The notes under the pieces were generated by a model. The model was not told where the DNA came from, did no database searches, and was given only the letters and a program-made list of their open reading frames with translations. Source: Bacillota bacterium (GTDB lineage: Bacteria > Armatimonadota > HRBIN16). From it: a stretch of DNA of 64,000 bases. The position numbers and the translations under genes were made by a program. Of this stretch, positions 2,489 through 57,209 are shown in pieces; position 1 is the stretch's first letter, and each line of letters begins with the position of its first letter. The stretch covers positions 13,637 through 77,636 of the forward strand of contig JAIMBJ010000011.1 in the NCBI GenBank assembly GCA_023511455.1, written 5' to 3'.

Positions 2489-2654
2489 CGCTGCCTCCTA
2501 TCCTCCTGTATTCTTAACGAAGTGATACCGTGTTGGGAAGAGAGTGAGTTTGTGACTGCGGTGCCAGAGCAAACTCACCATGTTATTATATGCCCAGATT
2601 TGCCCGATGTCAAGCAGAGCATGGGGGTGGTCAATCAGCCATTCACCTTCTGGA

Positions 2655-2725
2655 GAGCGAAGCTCCCACCGAGCCGTAAACTCATCCCCGCCCGCGGGGG
2701 GTTCGGCTCACCGGAAGCTTCGCCC
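2655..2725. repeat. GC-rich REP-like palindromic element (family 2, copy X) between the pgk stop and the hppA start
   Basis: Shares the core GAGCCGTAAACTC...CCCCGCCCGC(A/G)GGG...CTCACC(A/G)GAAG(C/G)TTCGCCC with a second copy at 19870-19954. Its arms are inverted repeats (gcgaagct...agcttcgc). Confidence 0.5.
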
Positions 2726-2748: not shown

Positions 2749-3945
2749 CTACTTATCCTGCAGCGCCGCTACGCCGGGCAGAACCCTGCCCTCCAGGAAC
2801 TCCAGCGACGCACCACCGCCGGTGGAGATATGCGTCATTTTATCGGCAAAGCCCAGCTGCTCCACTGCCGCGGCGGAATCGCCGCCGCCCACAATGGTTA
2901 CCGCGCCGGAATCCGCCAGGGCCTGCGCCATCGCTCGCGTTCCGACGGCAAACTTCTCGAACTCGAAGATGCCCATCGGTCCGTTCCACACGACCGTTCC
3001 TGCCCCTTTCACCGCCTCGGCGAAGCGCTTCTGGGTCTCGGGACCGATGTCCACGCCCTGCCAGTCGGCTGGGATGGCGTCTACCGACACCACCTTCGTT
3101 TGCACGGCATCGGGTCCCTTCTCAAAGGGGTTGCCGTCGGCGACCACCACGTCCACGGGCAGCAGGATTTTATCGCCCGCCTTCGCCAGCATCTCGCGGC
3201 AGAAGTCCAGCGAGTCGGCGTCCAGCAGCGACTGCCCGATTTCTTTGCCCTGCGCCTTCAGGAAGGTGTATGCCATCCCGCCACCGATGATGAGTTTGTC
3301 CACTTTGTTCACCAGGTTCTCGATGACGGGGATTTTATCTTTCACCTTCGCGCCGCCCAGCACCGCGATGAAGGGGCGTTTGGGATTCGCCAGTGCGCCG
3401 CCCAGATATTCGATCTCTTTTTGCATCAGGTAGCCTGCGACGCCGGGCAGATATTGGGTGACCCCTTCCGTGGAGGCGTGGGCGCGGTGTGCGGTACCGA
3501 AAGCGTCGTTGACGTACACCTCTGCCAGCGAAGCCAGCTGTTTGGCAAACTCGGGGTCGTTCTTCTCTTCCTCGGGATGGAAGCGCACGTTCTCCAGCAG
3601 CAGAACATCGCCATCCTCCATCGCCTGCACCATCTTCTCTACTTCCGGTCCCACGCAATCAGGGGCGAGGGTCACGTGCTTGCCCAGCAGCTCGCTCAAT
3701 CGCTCGGCGACGGGCTTCAGGGTGAACTTCTCCCTGTCTTCAGGTTTACCTTTGGGGCGCCCCAGATGCGAGACAAGGATGACCTTCGCGCCCTGGTTCA
3801 TCAGGTACTGGATAGTGGGCAGTGCCGCGCGGATACGCCGGTCATCGGTGATTTTTCCCGTTTCATCCTGTGGCACGTTGAAATCCACGCGCACCAGCAC
3901 GCGCTTGCCTTTGACGTCGATATCTTCAATGGTCTTCTTGTTCAT
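2749..3945 (-). CDS. pgk: Phosphoglycerate kinase
   Basis: Classic PGK N-terminus ([25 protein letters not shown]) with conservation along the full length. The start was moved to the internal Met at MNKKT, upstream of which the ORF is junk. Confidence 0.93.
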
Positions 3946-5940: not shown

Positions 5941-6118
5941 CCTCGGCAAGGGGGTCGGTCCCTCGGCACCTCTTCTGCTAAATCGTCCAGCACCAGTACG
6001 CAAACGGCATCTACTTGTTTCAACCGTACTTCGTTGGTGAGGAACGCATCGCACCGATGTGTAGCATGGTTAACGTCACCATCTGGCATCACCCGCATCC
6101 TTATACCGCATTTCCGCA

Positions 6119-6291
6119 GAGGGTGTTCGAAATGGGTGGTTAGAATGAACAGATCACCTAACCACCTTGCCCTCTTCCCTGCGAGGAAAGGGGGGAACGC
6201 CCCTCTCCTCGTAGGAGAGGGGGTGAGGTAAAGCAAGACCGCCTCTCTCCTTGCGCTGCAACCAACTTCTCAACAATTCCCGAACACTCTC
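6119..6291. mobile_element. MITE-like non-autonomous element, copy A (173 bp), with terminal inverted repeats and 9-bp target-site duplications
   Basis: Terminal inverted repeats GAGGGTGTTCG...CGAACACTCTC. It is flanked by a perfect 9-bp direct repeat ATTTCCGCA (6110-6118 and 6292-6300). Three internal palindromes are present: ggtggtta..taaccacc, cccttccctgcgagggaaggg and ccctctcctcgtaggagaggg. It is about 85% identical to the copy at 56887-57071. Confidence 0.6.
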
Positions 6292-6300
6292 ATTTCCGCA

Positions 6301-6328
6301 TGACATCCTCCTCTAAAAGCGGTACAAT
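6301..6328 (+). promoter_or_regulatory. Putative hisF promoter (TGACAT-N16-TACAAT)
   Basis: tgacatcctcctctaaaagcggtacaat lies immediately downstream of the right target-site duplication of MITE copy A. The RBS gagggg is followed by the ATG at 6357. Confidence 0.45.
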
Positions 6329-8571: not shown

Positions 8572-10257
8572 CTATCCTGTTCCAGAGATTCGGTTCCAGA
8601 GGTCTTCGACTCCCGCCTCTGCAGCGCGGACTACTTCGGTGTGAACGAGCAAAGGATACCGTTTGCGCACCTCTTCCACCAGCTCCGGGCGCACCACCCA
8701 TACCATGACGCCGAACACGTCCGCAAGTAGACGATCGAGGACGGGCGCCCATCCATCGCCCTGCAACTCCAGCGGTCCCACCTCGTCCACAATCAGCAGC
8801 TGTACGTTCGCCTCCTTCGCCGATTCCAGAGCCTGTCGCCCGAAGGCGATGCCGTCGGGTTCAAAAGCGAAAGCTCCCGCTCGAATGGTGCCCACCTGTT
8901 CTGACCGCCGCGCCAGCACATGTTCCTCTCCCGACTGCAGGTCTTTGACCAGGAAGAGATCGCGTTCTCCGCTGTTGCCGTAACAGGGCGAGACGATGCC
9001 ACCCACCTTCCACCCTGCACGACGTGCGCGTTCTGCCAGAGCAAGGCAGAGGGTCGTTTTGCCCTCGCCTCTGCCTCCAGTCAGTATCAACCGTCGGCGT
9101 GCCGAGAGGCGTTCCTGCCACCTGTCGACAAGCCGAAAAAGGCGCGCCATCGTCTGTACCGGCCCCCTCAGAACATCCTTCAGATTGGGGATACTCGCGA
9201 GGAAGTCGGGCAGGGCACAGACAGCGGATTGGATGGCTGTGTGCAACACTGCCAGACGCCCCCTCGAGAGCTGGCGCAGGATGCGTGGATGCGCGACCTC
9301 CACGCCGATGGCTGTAAACAGAAGCACCATCAGCGCCGCCCGCAAAGCCATCCGTACGCCTGCCAGCAGTCCCCCTGCCGTGTCTCCACTTACCGAACCC
9401 AACACCAGCCCGGAGAGCAATGCCAGCAGTAGTATCTCCGCCCATAGACGGGGATTGTGGAGCCGTTTTGCCAGCTGGCGGTAGCGTACGAGTATGGCAA
9501 TAGCCACCACAGCGACCGCCGGCGCGCTCAGGGAAAGCGGAGCCGAGCCCACCAGCCACAAACCGGCAGGTAAAAGCATTAACCAAACAGCCAGTAACGG
9601 AAGGGAGCGGTTGAACTCCACACCGCCTTGCTGAACCATGCGCTGCCTGTTAACTGCCCGGTCAACATCCTCCGCACTGGTGGCATACGTGTCCCGAACA
9701 CGCCTGCCCACATACCAGCCGGTAAGCCCTGCCGTTATCCCCAATACGCTTTGTAGAGATACCAGCACAAGGAGTACGCCACCCGGTTGCAAACCCTGCC
9801 AGCCTGTTCGCTGAGAGGCGAACTGCACCAGCTCCGTGAACACACGCATCAGGTCGATGCCGTAGATGATGGTCAACGAAACCAGCTTCTGCAGGAGTGT
9901 GTAGCTCACCGCCAGCGCGCCTCCTGCGGCGCAACCCAGCCAACCTCGCCCCAGAAGGCGCAGAGACACCTGCAGGATAACCCCTTCGACAAAGATGCCA
10001 ATCATCGGGCTGAGCAGAACCGCGCTGGGGGATACCGACTTCATCAGTGCGCACACCAGCGCCGTGCGCCAGATAAGACCTTTGTCTGTCCACACCTGTG
10101 CAGCGGCGGTAATCAGGAAGACGCTTGCCGTCGCCATCACGGTACCCGCGAAGGGCACACGCAGATTGTGCAGGAAACTTCCCACCACAATCTCGAACGC
10201 CGCCCACAGGCTGCCCAGCGCAGCGGCGCGGTTCCACGTCTGGACTGATTGTGGCAA
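8572..10257 (-). CDS. Fusion protein: ECF-transporter-like polytopic membrane region (S-component-like plus EcfT/CbiQ-like) fused to a C-terminal THEP1/COG1618-type P-loop NTPase
   Basis: About 11 TM helices. An EcfT-like segment is present (RMALRAALMVLLFTAIGVEVAHPRILRQLSRGRLAVL). The C-terminus carries the Walker A motif ILTGGRGEGKTTLCLALAERARRAGWKVGGIVS, a Walker B motif (LLIVDEVGPLE), and is not an ABC ATPase. The ORF-track start (10506) lies upstream of the terminator of the neighbouring gene and encodes Arg-rich junk. The start was therefore reset to TTG at 10257 with an AGGAG RBS, but this is uncertain. Confidence 0.65.
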   Translation of the reverse strand: MPQSVQTWNRAAALGSLWAAFEIVVGSFLHNLRVPFAGTVMATASVFLITAAAQVWTDKGLIWRTALVCALMKSVSPSAVLLSPMIGIFVEGVILQVSLRLLGRGWLGCAAGGALAVSYTLLQKLVSLTIIYGIDLMRVFTELVQFASQRTGWQGLQPGGVLLVLVSLQSVLGITAGLTGWYVGRRVRDTYATSAEDVDRAVNRQRMVQQGGVEFNRSLPLLAVWLMLLPAGLWLVGSAPLSLSAPAVAVVAIAILVRYRQLAKRLHNPRLWAEILLLALLSGLVLGSVSGDTAGGLLAGVRMALRAALMVLLFTAIGVEVAHPRILRQLSRGRLAVLHTAIQSAVCALPDFLASIPNLKDVLRGPVQTMARLFRLVDRWQERLSARRRLILTGGRGEGKTTLCLALAERARRAGWKVGGIVSPCYGNSGERDLFLVKDLQSGEEHVLARRSEQVGTIRAGAFAFEPDGIAFGRQALESAKEANVQLLIVDEVGPLELQGDGWAPVLDRLLADVFGVMVWVVRPELVEEVRKRYPLLVHTEVVRAAEAGVEDLWNRISGTG

Positions 10258-13146: not shown

Positions 13147-15612
13147 CTACTCGCCCACGCGCCACTCCAGAATGCCAGCAGAGTATCCTGCCCTGAGCTT
13201 GACCTCTAACCGCAACGCCGCAGCCACTACCGGCTCGAACTCGACGCGGTTGAAAGCGTCCTTACGTGTTTCTTCGCTGTGAGTGACCTTCACCGGATAC
13301 CACTGCTGACCGTCGGACCACAGCACGCGCCACGACTCCGGAAGACGGCACTGTCCGCCAGCCGGCTCGTCGTCAAACCAGTAGACCTCACACCACGAGA
13401 TGCGGCGCGGGCGGGCAAACACGTATTGCACCCACTCGGTGGTGCCCGTGTGGTCCCACCAGGTGAAGCGCGGGATGCTCCAATCTGCAGACGAAGAGGG
13501 CAAAAGCCCATCGTTCAGCGCGAGCACCGTGTCGGCGTGCCAGCAGTGCGAAGCCTCTGCAATGACCGTATTCGTCTCCTGCCAGACGTTGGCGTTCGGG
13601 CCCTCGCCTATCTGTGGGAAAGCCGACACACGCAATCGGGCACATCCCATGGGAATCAGGATGATGTCCTCCACAGGCTCGTCCGAGCGCACCGGTGATT
13701 CCTGTACCTCTCCAATCAGCCCGTTCGCCTCCAGACGCCACTGCGGGATGCGTTTGCCTTTCGCCCTGAGCAGGACGGGCGCGTTCTCTGGAGTGAAGGG
13801 TTGTGCGGCAACCTTGTCTGGCTTCCTGACGACCTCAAACGACATCTGCGGGTTGCTCAAGTCCACTATCAGCCCGTAGTTCCACGCGGTGGTGGGGAAA
13901 ACTTCGTACGCGGGGAAGCGGTCGGTGCCCCCGTAGCGTTCCCATCGTTCGCCTATCCGCAGGGAGAAAGCCAGCGGGCCGAGGTAAACGGAGACAGTGT
14001 TACGGTTTTTGTCCCATACTTTAACAAATAGTGGCATAGTCAGGGTTAGCCTGACACGGTCACCGTCGCGCCATTCGCGCTGCAGGAGTATCCAGCCTTT
14101 CGCCGGTGAGGGTAGTCGCTGTGACTGTCCGTTCACCTCCACGCGTGGCGTTTCGCACCAGCCGGGCACGCGCAGGGTGAGTGGGAACCGCACCGATTTT
14201 GGCGTGCGGATGGTCAACTGCACCTCCTCTCCGAAGGGGTAATCGGTCTCTTCCACGATTTCCACCGTCGTGCCATCGGCAACTTTCGCCTCCACCCGGC
14301 AGGGCGCGTAAAAGACAGCTGCCAGCCCGTTGCCCGGCGTTGCCATCCACAGGTGCTCCGCGAAGTAGGGCCATCCGAACGCCACGTTATGCTGGCAACA
14401 GCGGTAGTCGTAGGGGTTATAGGAAAGCATGTCGCCGCCGTTTTGCAGCAGTGGCGCTTTGCTCTGACGGTCGAGTTGCACCATGTTGGGCGCGGTGAGG
14501 TAGTGCAGCCCCTTCAGGTCGGGCGTCATGGCAGCGGGCAGTGAGTTGAAGGCGACTTCCTCGCACCGGTCTGCCCACTTGCCGTCACCGGTGATGCGCG
14601 TGAGCAGCTGGTGGCTGTACATCATCTCCACCATCGAACAGGTCTCCGCCGCCTGCCGGGGACCGGTGAAGCCAGGGCGAGCGTTCTCATCCGCACCGAA
14701 CATCCCGCCTGGCACCTGCCCATAGATGCCCATGACCGTATCGTACACGCGCTCGGTAGCCCGCAGGTAGCGAATATCACCGGTTTGCTGGTAGTACTGG
14801 GCGGGTTCGCGGAAGCCCTGGCAGATATTCACCCCGTGCCAGGTGGGGATGTCACCCACCCAATCCGCGGTGCGTTCATGGGTAACCCGCGCGGCGTCCA
14901 GCATCCACTTCTCCCCCGTGAGGTTGTACAGCCAGTGGATGGTGTCCAGGTTGTCGCCGCCGCGCACTTTCTGCCAGCTGCCGGGCAGGAACTTCTCCAG
15001 CGGCACGGTCATCTGCCAGCGGAAGTATTTGAGCATGAAGGGGATGACGCGCGGGTCGCCGGTGGCTTCGTAATGGGTGCGCAGCGCGTACAGCGCAATC
15101 ATGTTCGGCCAGAGGTCCATCGCGGCGCGGTTGCTTTCTGGACCGAAGTAGCCGTCTTCGCGCTGGCTGGCGAGAATGGCGTCGATCCACCGTCTTGCTT
15201 CAGTGATTATGCGCTGGTCTCCCAGCACGTAGCCCAGTGAGGTAAACCCCTTGAGCCAGTAGGGGAGCTCCTCCCAGCCATTTTCACCTTGCCCCTGCGG
15301 GTTTGCCCACGCACTGCCCTCAAACCGGCACCATGAGCTGATTTCGGTCAAATGCCCGGTGAAGCCGTCCGCCATCAGTTCCAGTTGATGACGGAGCCAG
15401 CCCTCGGGTCGGATAGAGCCGGCAGGCAGTTTGATGAGCGGGCTGGGCAGCAGCGGCGCCCGGTTGCCCGCGTAATGACGGTTCGCCGGCGAGGTTGGAA
15501 GAGTGATGGTTATCTTCATCGTTGCATTCCTCTCCGCAGAGTATTGTTGTGCATCAACTACCGTTATCACCCATAGCGTAGCGACCAGAAGGGACGCTTG
15601 TTTCATTCCCAC
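13147..15612 (-). CDS. Secreted six-hairpin glycoside hydrolase, DUF1680/GH127-like (candidate beta-L-arabinofuranosidase) with a C-terminal discoidin-like domain
   Basis: Signal peptide. An (alpha/alpha)6-type region is present. An E-T-C motif (AETCSMVEMMY) and a Cys-Cys pair (YDYRCCQHNVAFGWPYF) are reminiscent of the GH127 Zn/catalytic site. The 150-aa C-terminal beta-sandwich is F5/8-like. Confidence 0.5.
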   Translation of the reverse strand: MGMKQASLLVATLWVITVVDAQQYSAERNATMKITITLPTSPANRHYAGNRAPLLPSPLIKLPAGSIRPEGWLRHQLELMADGFTGHLTEISSWCRFEGSAWANPQGQGENGWEELPYWLKGFTSLGYVLGDQRIITEARRWIDAILASQREDGYFGPESNRAAMDLWPNMIALYALRTHYEATGDPRVIPFMLKYFRWQMTVPLEKFLPGSWQKVRGGDNLDTIHWLYNLTGEKWMLDAARVTHERTADWVGDIPTWHGVNICQGFREPAQYYQQTGDIRYLRATERVYDTVMGIYGQVPGGMFGADENARPGFTGPRQAAETCSMVEMMYSHQLLTRITGDGKWADRCEEVAFNSLPAAMTPDLKGLHYLTAPNMVQLDRQSKAPLLQNGGDMLSYNPYDYRCCQHNVAFGWPYFAEHLWMATPGNGLAAVFYAPCRVEAKVADGTTVEIVEETDYPFGEEVQLTIRTPKSVRFPLTLRVPGWCETPRVEVNGQSQRLPSPAKGWILLQREWRDGDRVRLTLTMPLFVKVWDKNRNTVSVYLGPLAFSLRIGERWERYGGTDRFPAYEVFPTTAWNYGLIVDLSNPQMSFEVVRKPDKVAAQPFTPENAPVLLRAKGKRIPQWRLEANGLIGEVQESPVRSDEPVEDIILIPMGCARLRVSAFPQIGEGPNANVWQETNTVIAEASHCWHADTVLALNDGLLPSSSADWSIPRFTWWDHTGTTEWVQYVFARPRRISWCEVYWFDDEPAGGQCRLPESWRVLWSDGQQWYPVKVTHSEETRKDAFNRVEFEPVVAAALRLEVKLRAGYSAGILEWRVGE

Positions 15613-19826: not shown

Positions 19827-19869
19827 CGCTGTGTCTCCTGTCCATGACGATGTGGTGTGACCTGATGCA

Positions 19870-19954
19870 GGGCGAGGCTCCCCTTGAGCCGTAAACTCGC
19901 CTCCCCGCCCGCAGGGAGGTAGGGTAGGGGCGCCTCACCAGAAGGTTCGCCCCC
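19870..19954. repeat. GC-rich REP-like palindromic element (family 2, copy Y) in the divergent GH/ZAS intergenic region
   Basis: Shares GAGCCGTAAACTC, CCCCGCCCGCAGGG and CTCACCAGAAGGTTCGCCC blocks with the copy at 2655-2725. Confidence 0.5.
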
Positions 19955-35767: not shown

Positions 35768-35861
35768 CAGTCACCTCGCAACTTTTTTTAATAGGAGTTA
35801 CGCAGTTGCGGTGGACACGTAGCAGGTCATGCTTTTTCACCAACTGCAAAGACAACTTCCT

Positions 35862-35928
35862 GTCATGCTGAGCGTCAACGAAGCATCTCAGAGCCTCAAA
35901 AGAGATTCTTCGCTTTGCTCAGAATGAC
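35862..35928. repeat. Long imperfect palindrome (about 67 bp) in an AT-rich intergenic region
   Basis: gtcatgctgagcg...cgaagcatctc..gagattcttcg..ctttgctcagaatgac forms nested inverted repeats, each arm with one mismatch. Confidence 0.25.
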
Positions 35929-36078
35929 ACATTACGATGCTTTATACCGCAAGCTTCTGAACAGTCTTTCAACGGCGCAACTCCTACCTTATTCAAGCCT
36001 CCCATTGCCCGGTGAAATATCGGCTTCACTGCGACGTTATGTTATACCCCCTGTGAGGCATAAAAGGTCGGCACCGCC

Positions 36079-56781: not shown

Positions 56782-56886
56782 CGTGTTTGTCTTCCTCCTC
56801 TCTCTTTACAATTTATCACCATTCGCCAGTCCCACAGGCGATTCCCCTGTGCGAATCCCCCGCCGAGTGCCAGCCCCGCCTCTCCT

Positions 56887-57071
56887 GAGGGTGTTCCACA
56901 TTGGTGGTTGAATGGAGGATCACCTAATCCCCTTGCCCCCTTCCCTGCGAGGGAAGGGGGAACGCCCCTCTCCTCGTAGGAGAGGGGACGGGGTGAGGTA
57001 AGACAAGGGGTAGCAAGACCGCCTCTCTCCTTGCGCTACAACCAACTTCTCCACAATTCCCGAACACCCTC
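56887..57071. mobile_element. MITE-like element, copy B (185 bp), with a perfect 10-bp terminal inverted repeat and a 9-bp target-site duplication
   Basis: Terminal inverted repeat GAGGGTGTTC...GAACACCCTC. Flanking 9-mers are GCCTCTCCT and GCTTCTCCT (8 of 9 match). It carries the same internal palindromes as copy A and ends 9 bp before the tRNA-Leu -35 box. Confidence 0.6.
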
Positions 57072-57079
57072 GCTTCTCC

Positions 57080-57108
57080 TTGACATTTTGGGGGAGGCTG
57101 GTTATACT
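57080..57108 (+). promoter_or_regulatory. tRNA-Leu promoter (TTGACA-N17-TATACT)
   Basis: ttgacattttgggggaggctggttatact places the transcription start about 9 nt upstream of the mature tRNA 5' end. Confidence 0.55.
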
Positions 57109-57124
57109 CTATCTGGTGCTACAC

Positions 57125-57209
57125 GCCGGAGTGGCGGAATGGTAGACGCGCCCGCCTCAAAAGCGGGTGCCGAACAGGCGTGGGGGTTCGAGTCCCCCCT
57201 CCGGCACCA
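57125..57209 (+). tRNA. tRNA-Leu (anticodon CAA), type II with a long variable arm and encoded CCA
   Basis: Acceptor stem gccggag/ctccggc. Anticodon stem cccgc/gcggg with loop ctCAAaa. Variable arm tgccgaacaggcgt. T-arm gggggTTCGAgtccccc. The 3' end is ACCA. Confidence 0.9.

Follow-up and report, generated by a model that had tools for sequence, protein, structure and literature searches.

A family of small mobile elements in Armatimonadota that probably inserts at the upstream edge of promoter -35 hexamers

The DNA analysed here is a 64-kb stretch (the window; positions 13,637 to 77,636 of contig JAIMBJ010000011.1) from a bacterium of the phylum Armatimonadota. It harbours two small elements, copy A upstream of hisF and copy B upstream of a tRNA-Leu gene. 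These are very probably non-autonomous miniature transposable elements with inverted repeats (MITEs) of an insertion sequence (IS) family of ~1.0 kb, found in Armatimonadota and mostly in hot-spring metagenomes, which inserts at the upstream edge of the -35 hexamer. An original prediction made from the sequence of the window had described A and B as MITEs; absent from it was the register that both copies share with a downstream sigma-70-type promoter.

Insertions share one register with a -35 hexamer

Thirteen independent insertions were compared: the MITEs A, B, L015, L016, L019, L020, X and L035, and the IS of L021, L022, L023, L033 and L035 (L-numbers denote comparison loci or contigs, P-numbers predicted proteins, and A and B the copies within the window). 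A hexamer with at most one mismatch to TTGACA was present in the same register in 13/13 insertions (nine perfect, four with one mismatch), and the end of the 9-bp target-site duplication coincided with the first base of this hexamer in all of them (T/TGACA, the slash marking the edge of the duplication). A -10 box (two mismatches at most) followed 16-18 bp downstream in the 12/12 cases with enough flanking sequence. One end of the element faced the promoter in seven insertions and the other end in six. The background of hexamers within one mismatch of TTGACA is 0.0032 per position in these genomes; the chance rate was 0.006 per element (both ends tested), which for 13/13 gives 2.5e-29. Seven insertions first revealed the pattern, which then recurred in 6/6 fetched later. 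It is this T/TGACA register that defines the IS/MITE family as a whole.

The genes behind the targeted promoters include hisF, tRNA-Leu, rpoB, aroA, two lacI-like regulators and an array of clustered regularly interspaced short palindromic repeats (CRISPR). In the last case (L022, 1749-2833 and 2958-3989), the IS is located at the leader promoter of a 17-repeat array (Rfam RF01315), with the -35 and -10 boxes intact. L033 has an IS in tandem with a different MITE, the two being separated by three copies of one 9-mer, as expected from two successive hits on one promoter.

Such an association might also arise if insertion were random and only insertions sparing genes and core promoters survived. 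Intergenic DNA makes up ~7% of these genomes, so survivors must be intergenic, where promoters are common. However, selection cannot give a register of one base pair such as that shared by the 13 insertions, and in L033 one stretch of 9 bp was hit twice. We consider survivorship highly improbable.

Copies A and B in the window

Copy A (6119-6291, + strand, 173 nt; E = 1e-54 with the family nhmmer profile) is flanked by ATTTCCGCA, read directly at 6110-6118 on the left and identically at 6292-6300 on the right. Its left terminal inverted repeat is GAGGGTGTTCG (6119-6129, +) and its right one CGAACACTCTC (6281-6291, +), which has one mismatch compared to the left repeat (mismatched form GAACACTCTC). 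Base 6300 is both the last base of the right duplication and the first base of the -35 hexamer of the predicted hisF promoter (6300-6328, +; -35 ATGACA at 6300-6305, 17-bp spacer, -10 TACAAT at 6323-6328, 10/12 consensus match). The hisF start (6357) is 28 nt downstream of this promoter.

Copy B (56887-57071, + strand, 185 nt, near full length; profile E = 1e-62) lies between GCCTCTCCT (56878-56886) and GCTTCTCCT (57072-57080), and its ends, GAGGGTGTTC and GAACACCCTC, are perfect 10-bp inverted repeats. The last T of the right duplication (57080) is the first T of TTGACA in the predicted tRNA-Leu promoter (57080-57108, +; -35 TTGACA at 57080-57085, 17-bp spacer, -10 TATACT at 57103-57108, 11/12 consensus match), behind which the tRNA-Leu(CAA) gene is found (57125-57209, +).

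Direct reading of the sequence therefore bore out two copies with terminal inverted repeats and 9-bp duplications, the latter matching at 9/9 positions in copy A, as predicted, and at 8/9 in copy B. The chance of a perfect 9-mer at fixed positions flanking a pair of inverted repeats is ~4e-6 per site. Identity between the copies was 84% across 188 alignment columns (~85% had been proposed). The shared inverted repeats of 10-11 bp held without reservation for copy B only, in view of the mismatch on the right of copy A, and the single 12-bp indel had to be replaced by an internal deletion of 15-16 nt in copy A, relative to the family consensus of 185-188 nt, together with three indels of 1-2 nt (net difference between A and B, 12). 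The consensus ends, GAGGGTGTTC(G) and (C)GAACACYCTC, are present in copies A and B and in every full-length family member. A third copy was not found in the window with the nhmmer family profile. Copies A and B stay below the upper size of ~500 bp for MITEs, and their only open reading frames (ORFs) are spurious and run through the element; because the interior is free of genes, the MITE would have to be moved in trans.

To the left of copy A, a third and diverged 9-mer is present (6101-6118), the order being TATACCGCA, ATTTCCGCA, the MITE, ATTTCCGCA and TGACAT. A relative with an empty site (L038, ~3925-3945) has only CCTACCGCA followed by TGACAT, and an earlier element that inserted at the hisF promoter and was later lost could have left the additional 8-9 nt behind.

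The same promoters in relatives

The L038 and L039 contigs encode a HisF 94% identical to that of the window and keep the same PGK-GAPDH-HNH-hisF order and the hisF promoter (CCGCATGACAT...GGTACAATAGAGGTG), which is also conserved in L017. The HNH-hisF spacer is 195 nt in L038/L039 vs. 416 nt in the window; it contains no element and is a clean empty site. At the promoter, CCTACCGCA is directly followed by TGACAT in L038/L039, compared to ATTTCCGCA, the element, ATTTCCGCA and TGACAT in the window. In L029/L030 (KdsB 90% identical), the tRNA-Leu gene and its promoter are kept and the element is absent, but the remaining spacer is not alignable; these loci show the absence of copy B and not a clean empty site. 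The search for a clean empty site of copy B among KdsB relatives mostly led to a different gene order or to contigs breaking at the spacer. In ~100 kb of sequence from relatives whose KdsB is 86-90% identical, no copy was present.

These comparisons bear on whether the elements are a conserved, non-mobile regulatory module (an activator site or an insulator) of the hisF and tRNA-Leu promoters, the alternative against which transposition had been set in the original prediction. Both copies do share an identical promoter register, the hisF copy is kept in a second species, and each targeted promoter has the same terminal 11-17 nt at ~-44 to -60. On the other side, the element is missing at the syntenic hisF promoter of L038/L039 and at the tRNA-Leu promoter of L029/L030, and it is present at unrelated genes. 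It is flanked by 9-bp duplications and its ends are common to IS bearing a transposase. Moreover, its hairpins lack compensatory changes and have no Rfam match. We give a regulatory module almost no credence as the origin of the elements, though they may have a secondary effect on promoter strength, and transposition stands.

Further copies of the MITE

A 19-nt interior probe detected seven loci in the genome collection, six of them in the Armatimonadota metagenome-assembled genome (MAG) KM4338-44 and one in MAG RSWS16; one further copy was found in GCA_026003175.1 (L035). The probe-matched loci are mostly at contig ends, as is usual for repeats that interrupt assemblies, and their copies, some full-length (186-188 nt) and others truncated, sit in unrelated surroundings. 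In all, at least eight additional copies at unrelated loci were seen across three Armatimonadota MAGs, the combined tally for KM4338-44 being at least seven loci. Copy B is 87-92% identical to the full-length copies of other Armatimonadota MAGs. Duplications were also recovered in other MITE copies (8/9 in L016, 9/9 beside a G-run in L019, 9/9 in X). The expectation of more copies at unrelated genes, several of them with 9-bp duplications, was thus confirmed.

Proteins of the window recur unchanged on contigs of several metagenomes, including a 314-kb ENA contig. KM4338-44 is a different species, its hisF region being ~87% identical to the window at the nucleotide level. It carries the orthologue of copy A at hisF (L017, 30-217). 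As this copy is common to both, the hisF insertion predates the split between the window lineage and KM4338-44. The KM4338-44 hisF copy has the left flank of another copy (L017, 1-29), and the 9-mer AGGGGTTTG recurs to the right of a partial copy (L014, 1-133); this swap of flanks points to recombination between copies or to a chimeric assembly.

Metagenomes were also scanned for pairs of terminal inverted repeats separated by a gap, which gave eight loci. L010 was copy A itself, L007 and L009 were informative (see below), and L008 and L011-L013 were chance matches or unrelated palindromes. L006 had similar ends and no duplication, and its status is uncertain. The same scan of viral contigs gave no match.

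The parent insertion sequence and its transposase

A full-length IS with matching ends, which the original prediction had called for, was found in several loci (L009, L021, L022, L023, L033 and L035). L007/L009 contain a 164-nt element whose ends are the same but whose interior differs; at a distance of 9 nt stands an 873-bp element, again with these ends, in which the transposase gene is broken. Past the first 11 nt, the L009 IS has two different ends, and each corresponds to one side of the MITE: the left MITE end equals the transposase-proximal IS end over 16 nt (GAGGGTGTTCGAAATT), and the right MITE end equals the other IS end over 17 nt (GAGGGTGTTCGAGAATT). Intact IS with the same inverted repeats were 1024 bp (L021), 1032 bp (L022), 1060 bp (L023), 1059 bp (L033) and 1012 bp (L035) long. 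Four of these five (L021, L022, L023 and L033) have 9/9 duplications, those of L023 and L033 being homopolymer-ambiguous. In L035, 9 nt separate a copy of the window-family MITE from a full-length IS. The same ends are common to three or more MITE types that differ in their interiors. We infer that the MITE is moved in trans by the transposase of the parent IS.

A protein search with the repaired transposase gave 73 proteins. The full-length ones have ~320-365 amino acids and contain PF01609 (DDE_Tnp_1; 47.2, 30.9, 29.7 and 27.6 bits in P0022, P0032, P0005 and P0002 respectively, cut-off 23), and the few named homologues come from Armatimonadota or Fimbriimonadales MAGs. In an alignment of 15 sequences, the triad D123 (VDGTG), D202 (VGDKLYG) and E260 (RYRIEQVFGSVK) was at least 90% conserved. 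Around E260, R-x3-E-x6-K is present and the leading Y of Y-x2-R-x3-E-x6-K is missing. Judged by these features, the transposase is a divergent member of the IS4/IS5 superfamily, and its family placement is weak. Its closest annotated relative, obtained in the plasmid search, is ISAae1 of Aquifex (33% identity).

A stop codon is missing from the IS itself (L035; proteins P0005, P0008 and P0032), and the transposase ORF crosses the right inverted repeat (TTTTCGAACACCCTC, read as FSNTL). In the canonical geometry, the TGA within the -35 TTGACA serves as the stop of the transposase, as in L035 (3455-3484, FSNTL-RGY-stop). In other contexts, the tail of the transposase is variable. Tandem elements 8-11 nt apart are common, as in L009 (110-1451; 164-nt MITE, IS and a third element), L007 (1-682), L033 (2459-3700; IS and 175-nt MITE) and L035 (2263-3469; MITE and IS).

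Folding and the interior of the MITE

Single-stranded copies A and B fold far better than shuffled controls (z = -5.2 each), in agreement with the hairpin-rich structure that had been proposed. Of the three internal hairpins claimed, two are strong and the third, near the left end, is weaker. Hairpin 1 is degenerate in copy A, with a C.A mismatch (6170-6195, +), and has a perfect 11-bp stem in copy B (56936-56960, +). Hairpin 2 (CCCCTCTCCTCGTAGGAGAGGGG) is found at 6200-6222 (+) in copy A, where it consists of CCCCTCTCCT, CGT and AGGAGAGGGG, and at 56965-56987 (+) in copy B.

Given such folding, the elements might be a structured RNA or a hairpin repeat like the repetitive extragenic palindromic (REP) sequences, acting as a terminator, stabiliser or small RNA, with incidental inverted ends. 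The z of about -5 favours this, as does an interior hairpin module (CCCCCTTCCCT...AGGGAAGGGGG, CCCCTCTCC...GGAGAGGGG, GGGGTGAGG) which also occurs without transposon ends (L014, ~2180-2320; L016, 7798-7938) and is weakly similar to cyanobacterial plasmid repeats of Calothrix (AP025022.1 and AP018209.1). These weak matches to the interior hairpins were the only ones obtained with the MITE in the plasmid search. However, compensatory changes were absent from the hairpins (a double change in 1/55 pairs, covariation term unfavourable), no T-tract terminator was seen at copies A and B, and the tRNA-Leu was the sole Rfam match in the whole window, with none to the MITE. Furthermore, what the MITE has in common with the IS and other MITE types (the 164-nt element of L007 and the 175-nt element of L033) is its ends, not its interior. 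A functional RNA is accordingly very unlikely. The MITE interior seems to have been captured from a separate hairpin-repeat family; because the hairpins lack compensatory changes and occur elsewhere without the ends, they look like captured filler.

Target recognition

In the mechanism that we propose, a DDE transposase would bind the terminal inverted repeats of 11-17 bp and make a 9-bp staggered cut in the target nnnnnn(C)(C)T/TGACA, with one edge between the first and the second base of TTGACA. The element would be joined in either orientation, and repair would duplicate the 9 bp, which would thereby end on the first T of TTGACA. The -35 box, the spacer, the -10 box and 9 bp upstream would survive, and DNA upstream of ~-44 would be displaced by the length of the element. 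Insertion would be tolerated even at essential genes because the core promoter is left intact. Both the cut-and-paste chemistry and the mode of target recognition are what we infer from the ends and flanks of the elements.

We favour a transposition complex that reads TTGACA directly, with gene-disrupting insertions being lost afterwards, because the hexamers hit are so near to consensus. A possible, though rather unlikely, alternative is that the RNA polymerase holoenzyme on the promoter (sigma region 4 or the alpha subunits) recruits the transposition complex, much as with Ty3 at Pol III start sites. The family would then dock on the sigma-70 holoenzyme, or on its -35 DNA architecture, and insert along the upstream edge of promoters that are occupied. 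This model is kept alive because the target is asymmetric yet the orientation of the element is random (7 vs. 6), which is unusual for read-out by a two-fold symmetric DDE complex, and there is no TGTCA half-site on the far side of the duplication. In addition, a near-consensus -10 box was found at 16-18 bp in 12/12 testable sites, compared to 10/44 intergenic -35-like hexamers in relatives. On the other hand, 5/6 perfect intergenic TTGACA hexamers already have a -10 box, so the association needs no polymerase, and the targeted hexamers (9/13 perfect) are tighter than mere polymerase occupancy predicts. No sigma-like or polymerase-binding domain was detected in the transposase, for which Pfam gives PF01609 alone. 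The AlphaFold model was poor (mean predicted local distance difference test score, pLDDT, of 55), and its Foldseek matches in the PDB were weak RNase-H-like ones, none with E below 0.01. A DDE transposase that has evolved its own read-out of TTGACA is the weaker version of the idea, is still new, and is compatible with the evidence.

Relation to known elements

Bacterial IS are usually viewed as near-random mutagens or as carriers of outward-facing promoters. The element described here is a MITE/IS pair of the usual kind within the IS4/IS5 superfamily, from a phylum for which none seems to have been reported; the new part is the choice of target, which is not ordinary for a bacterial IS.

The IS903 group of the IS5 family comprises elements of ~1.05 kb with one ORF and 9-bp duplications. 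Our IS (1012-1060 bp, one ORF, 9-bp duplications) resembles this group in size and duplication. It is like IS5-family elements in having a single PF01609 transposase and short terminal inverted repeats, and differs in scoring far below the curated IS5/IS4 cut-offs and, from the IS5/IS903 comparison elements, in a transposase ORF without a stop inside the element. None of the IS5 or IS903 elements is known to choose -35 hexamers as its target. ISAae1 (annotated by PGAP as 'IS5-like element ISAae1 family') is the nearest annotated relative, but its inverted repeats are unrelated (TTGTAAACCAAGG...) and no TTGACA adjoins it; these differences ruled it out as a described relative with the same behaviour.

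Correia elements duplicate TA, compared to 9 bp here. In other respects, the MITEs of the window resemble the Correia elements of Neisseria, MITEAba12 and QMITEs, which are small, non-coding elements with inverted repeats, duplications and hairpins, are mobilised in trans by a related IS, and are mostly intergenic, often just upstream of genes (PMC10969869). Correia elements, MITEAba12 and QMITEs alter expression through the promoters or integration host factor (IHF) sites that they carry (PMC10969869), whereas the present family comes to lie beside a promoter already in place, in one fixed register, and does not disrupt it.

Several elements with preferred targets offer a closer parallel. Ty3 and the Dictyostelium TRE keep to a set distance from Pol III promoters or tRNA genes when they integrate. 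Like them, the present family inserts with base-pair precision just upstream of a transcription unit and spares the gene, copy B even fronting a tRNA gene. Ty3 and TRE, however, are eukaryotic retroelements tethered by TFIIIB or TFIIIC, while here the element is a bacterial DDE transposon and tethering is a hypothesis. Among bacterial IS, IS186 targets GGGG(N6-7)CCCC in the lon promoter, IS1397/ISKpn1 target REP palindromes, and the IS1111 group targets transposon ends; the REP-targeting IS use other transposase families. ISPpu9 inserts in REP palindromes (PMC12288879). All of these share with the present family a selectivity for short, recurrent, non-coding motifs, which limits damage to the host. 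The motif here differs in being the general sigma-70 -35 hexamer, so that each genome offers the family potential safe sites by the hundred, every one of them belonging to a transcription unit.

If the interpretation is correct, base-pair integration at the upstream edge of the -35 hexamer would be a way of choosing targets that is new among bacterial DDE transposons. The persistence of the family in genomes as compact as these, even before rpoB, tRNA genes and CRISPR arrays, would be accounted for, and the elements would mark promoters in a poorly studied phylum without experiment. All targeted promoters gain the same terminal sequence upstream of the core, and this could rewire the upstream regulation of many genes at once. 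Polymerase docking, if true, would be a bacterial equivalent of the Ty3/TFIIIB safe haven and a natural tool for base-pair-precise, promoter-proximal insertion.

Observations that weigh against the interpretation

A number of findings count against insertion at -35 hexamers by a family of mobile elements. Only 13 insertions were surveyed, the hexamers flanking them belong to predicted promoters, and all of the insertions sit in MAGs or metagenome contigs, where chimeras are possible at repeats. Boundaries are ambiguous by 1-2 nt in the homopolymer runs of L019 and L023, and copy X is a reconstruction across two contig ends, with a perfect AGGGGTTTG on each side. No matching duplication was found for the MITEs of L020 and L035 or for the IS of L035, and the L007/L009 elements have neither duplications nor an adjoining TTGACA. 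The missing duplications of L020, both L035 elements and L007/L009 imply later rearrangement or assembly error.

Others concern the transposase and present mobility. A transposase gene was absent from the window (tblastn). The NCBIfam IS5 model NF033579 (transpos_IS5_2), the best model for three of four proteins, gave 35-40 bits vs. a cut-off of 140, and the IS4 model NF033592 (transpos_IS4_1) 18-40 bits vs. 115. Shared between species at ~87% nucleotide identity, the hisF copy is old and may now be immobile. Finally, the comparison with published work covered open-access texts, in which we found no report of a -35-targeting IS and nothing relevant on Armatimonadota MITEs or ISAae1.

Other repeats

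A second, unrelated MITE-like element of 191 nt is present in the window (35794-35984), with the inverted ends GGAGTTACGCAGTTG and GGAGTTGCGCCGTTG. It is flanked by TA on both sides (35792-35793 and 35985-35986), as are IS630/Tc1-type elements. A 78% identical copy lies upstream of argG in MAG RSWS16 (L019, 357-554); this segment had been considered as an orthologous region of the window and was rejected, being the TA-flanked MITE.

A dispersed repeat of 57 nt (family D7) occurs twice in the window (2645-2701 and 19860-19916, 72% identical) and contains GGAGAGCGAAGCTCCC...GAGCCGTAAACTC. In L029 (~9700-9800), a relative without the MITE, the spacer between kdsB and tRNA-Leu is taken up by a hairpin repeat that resembles it.

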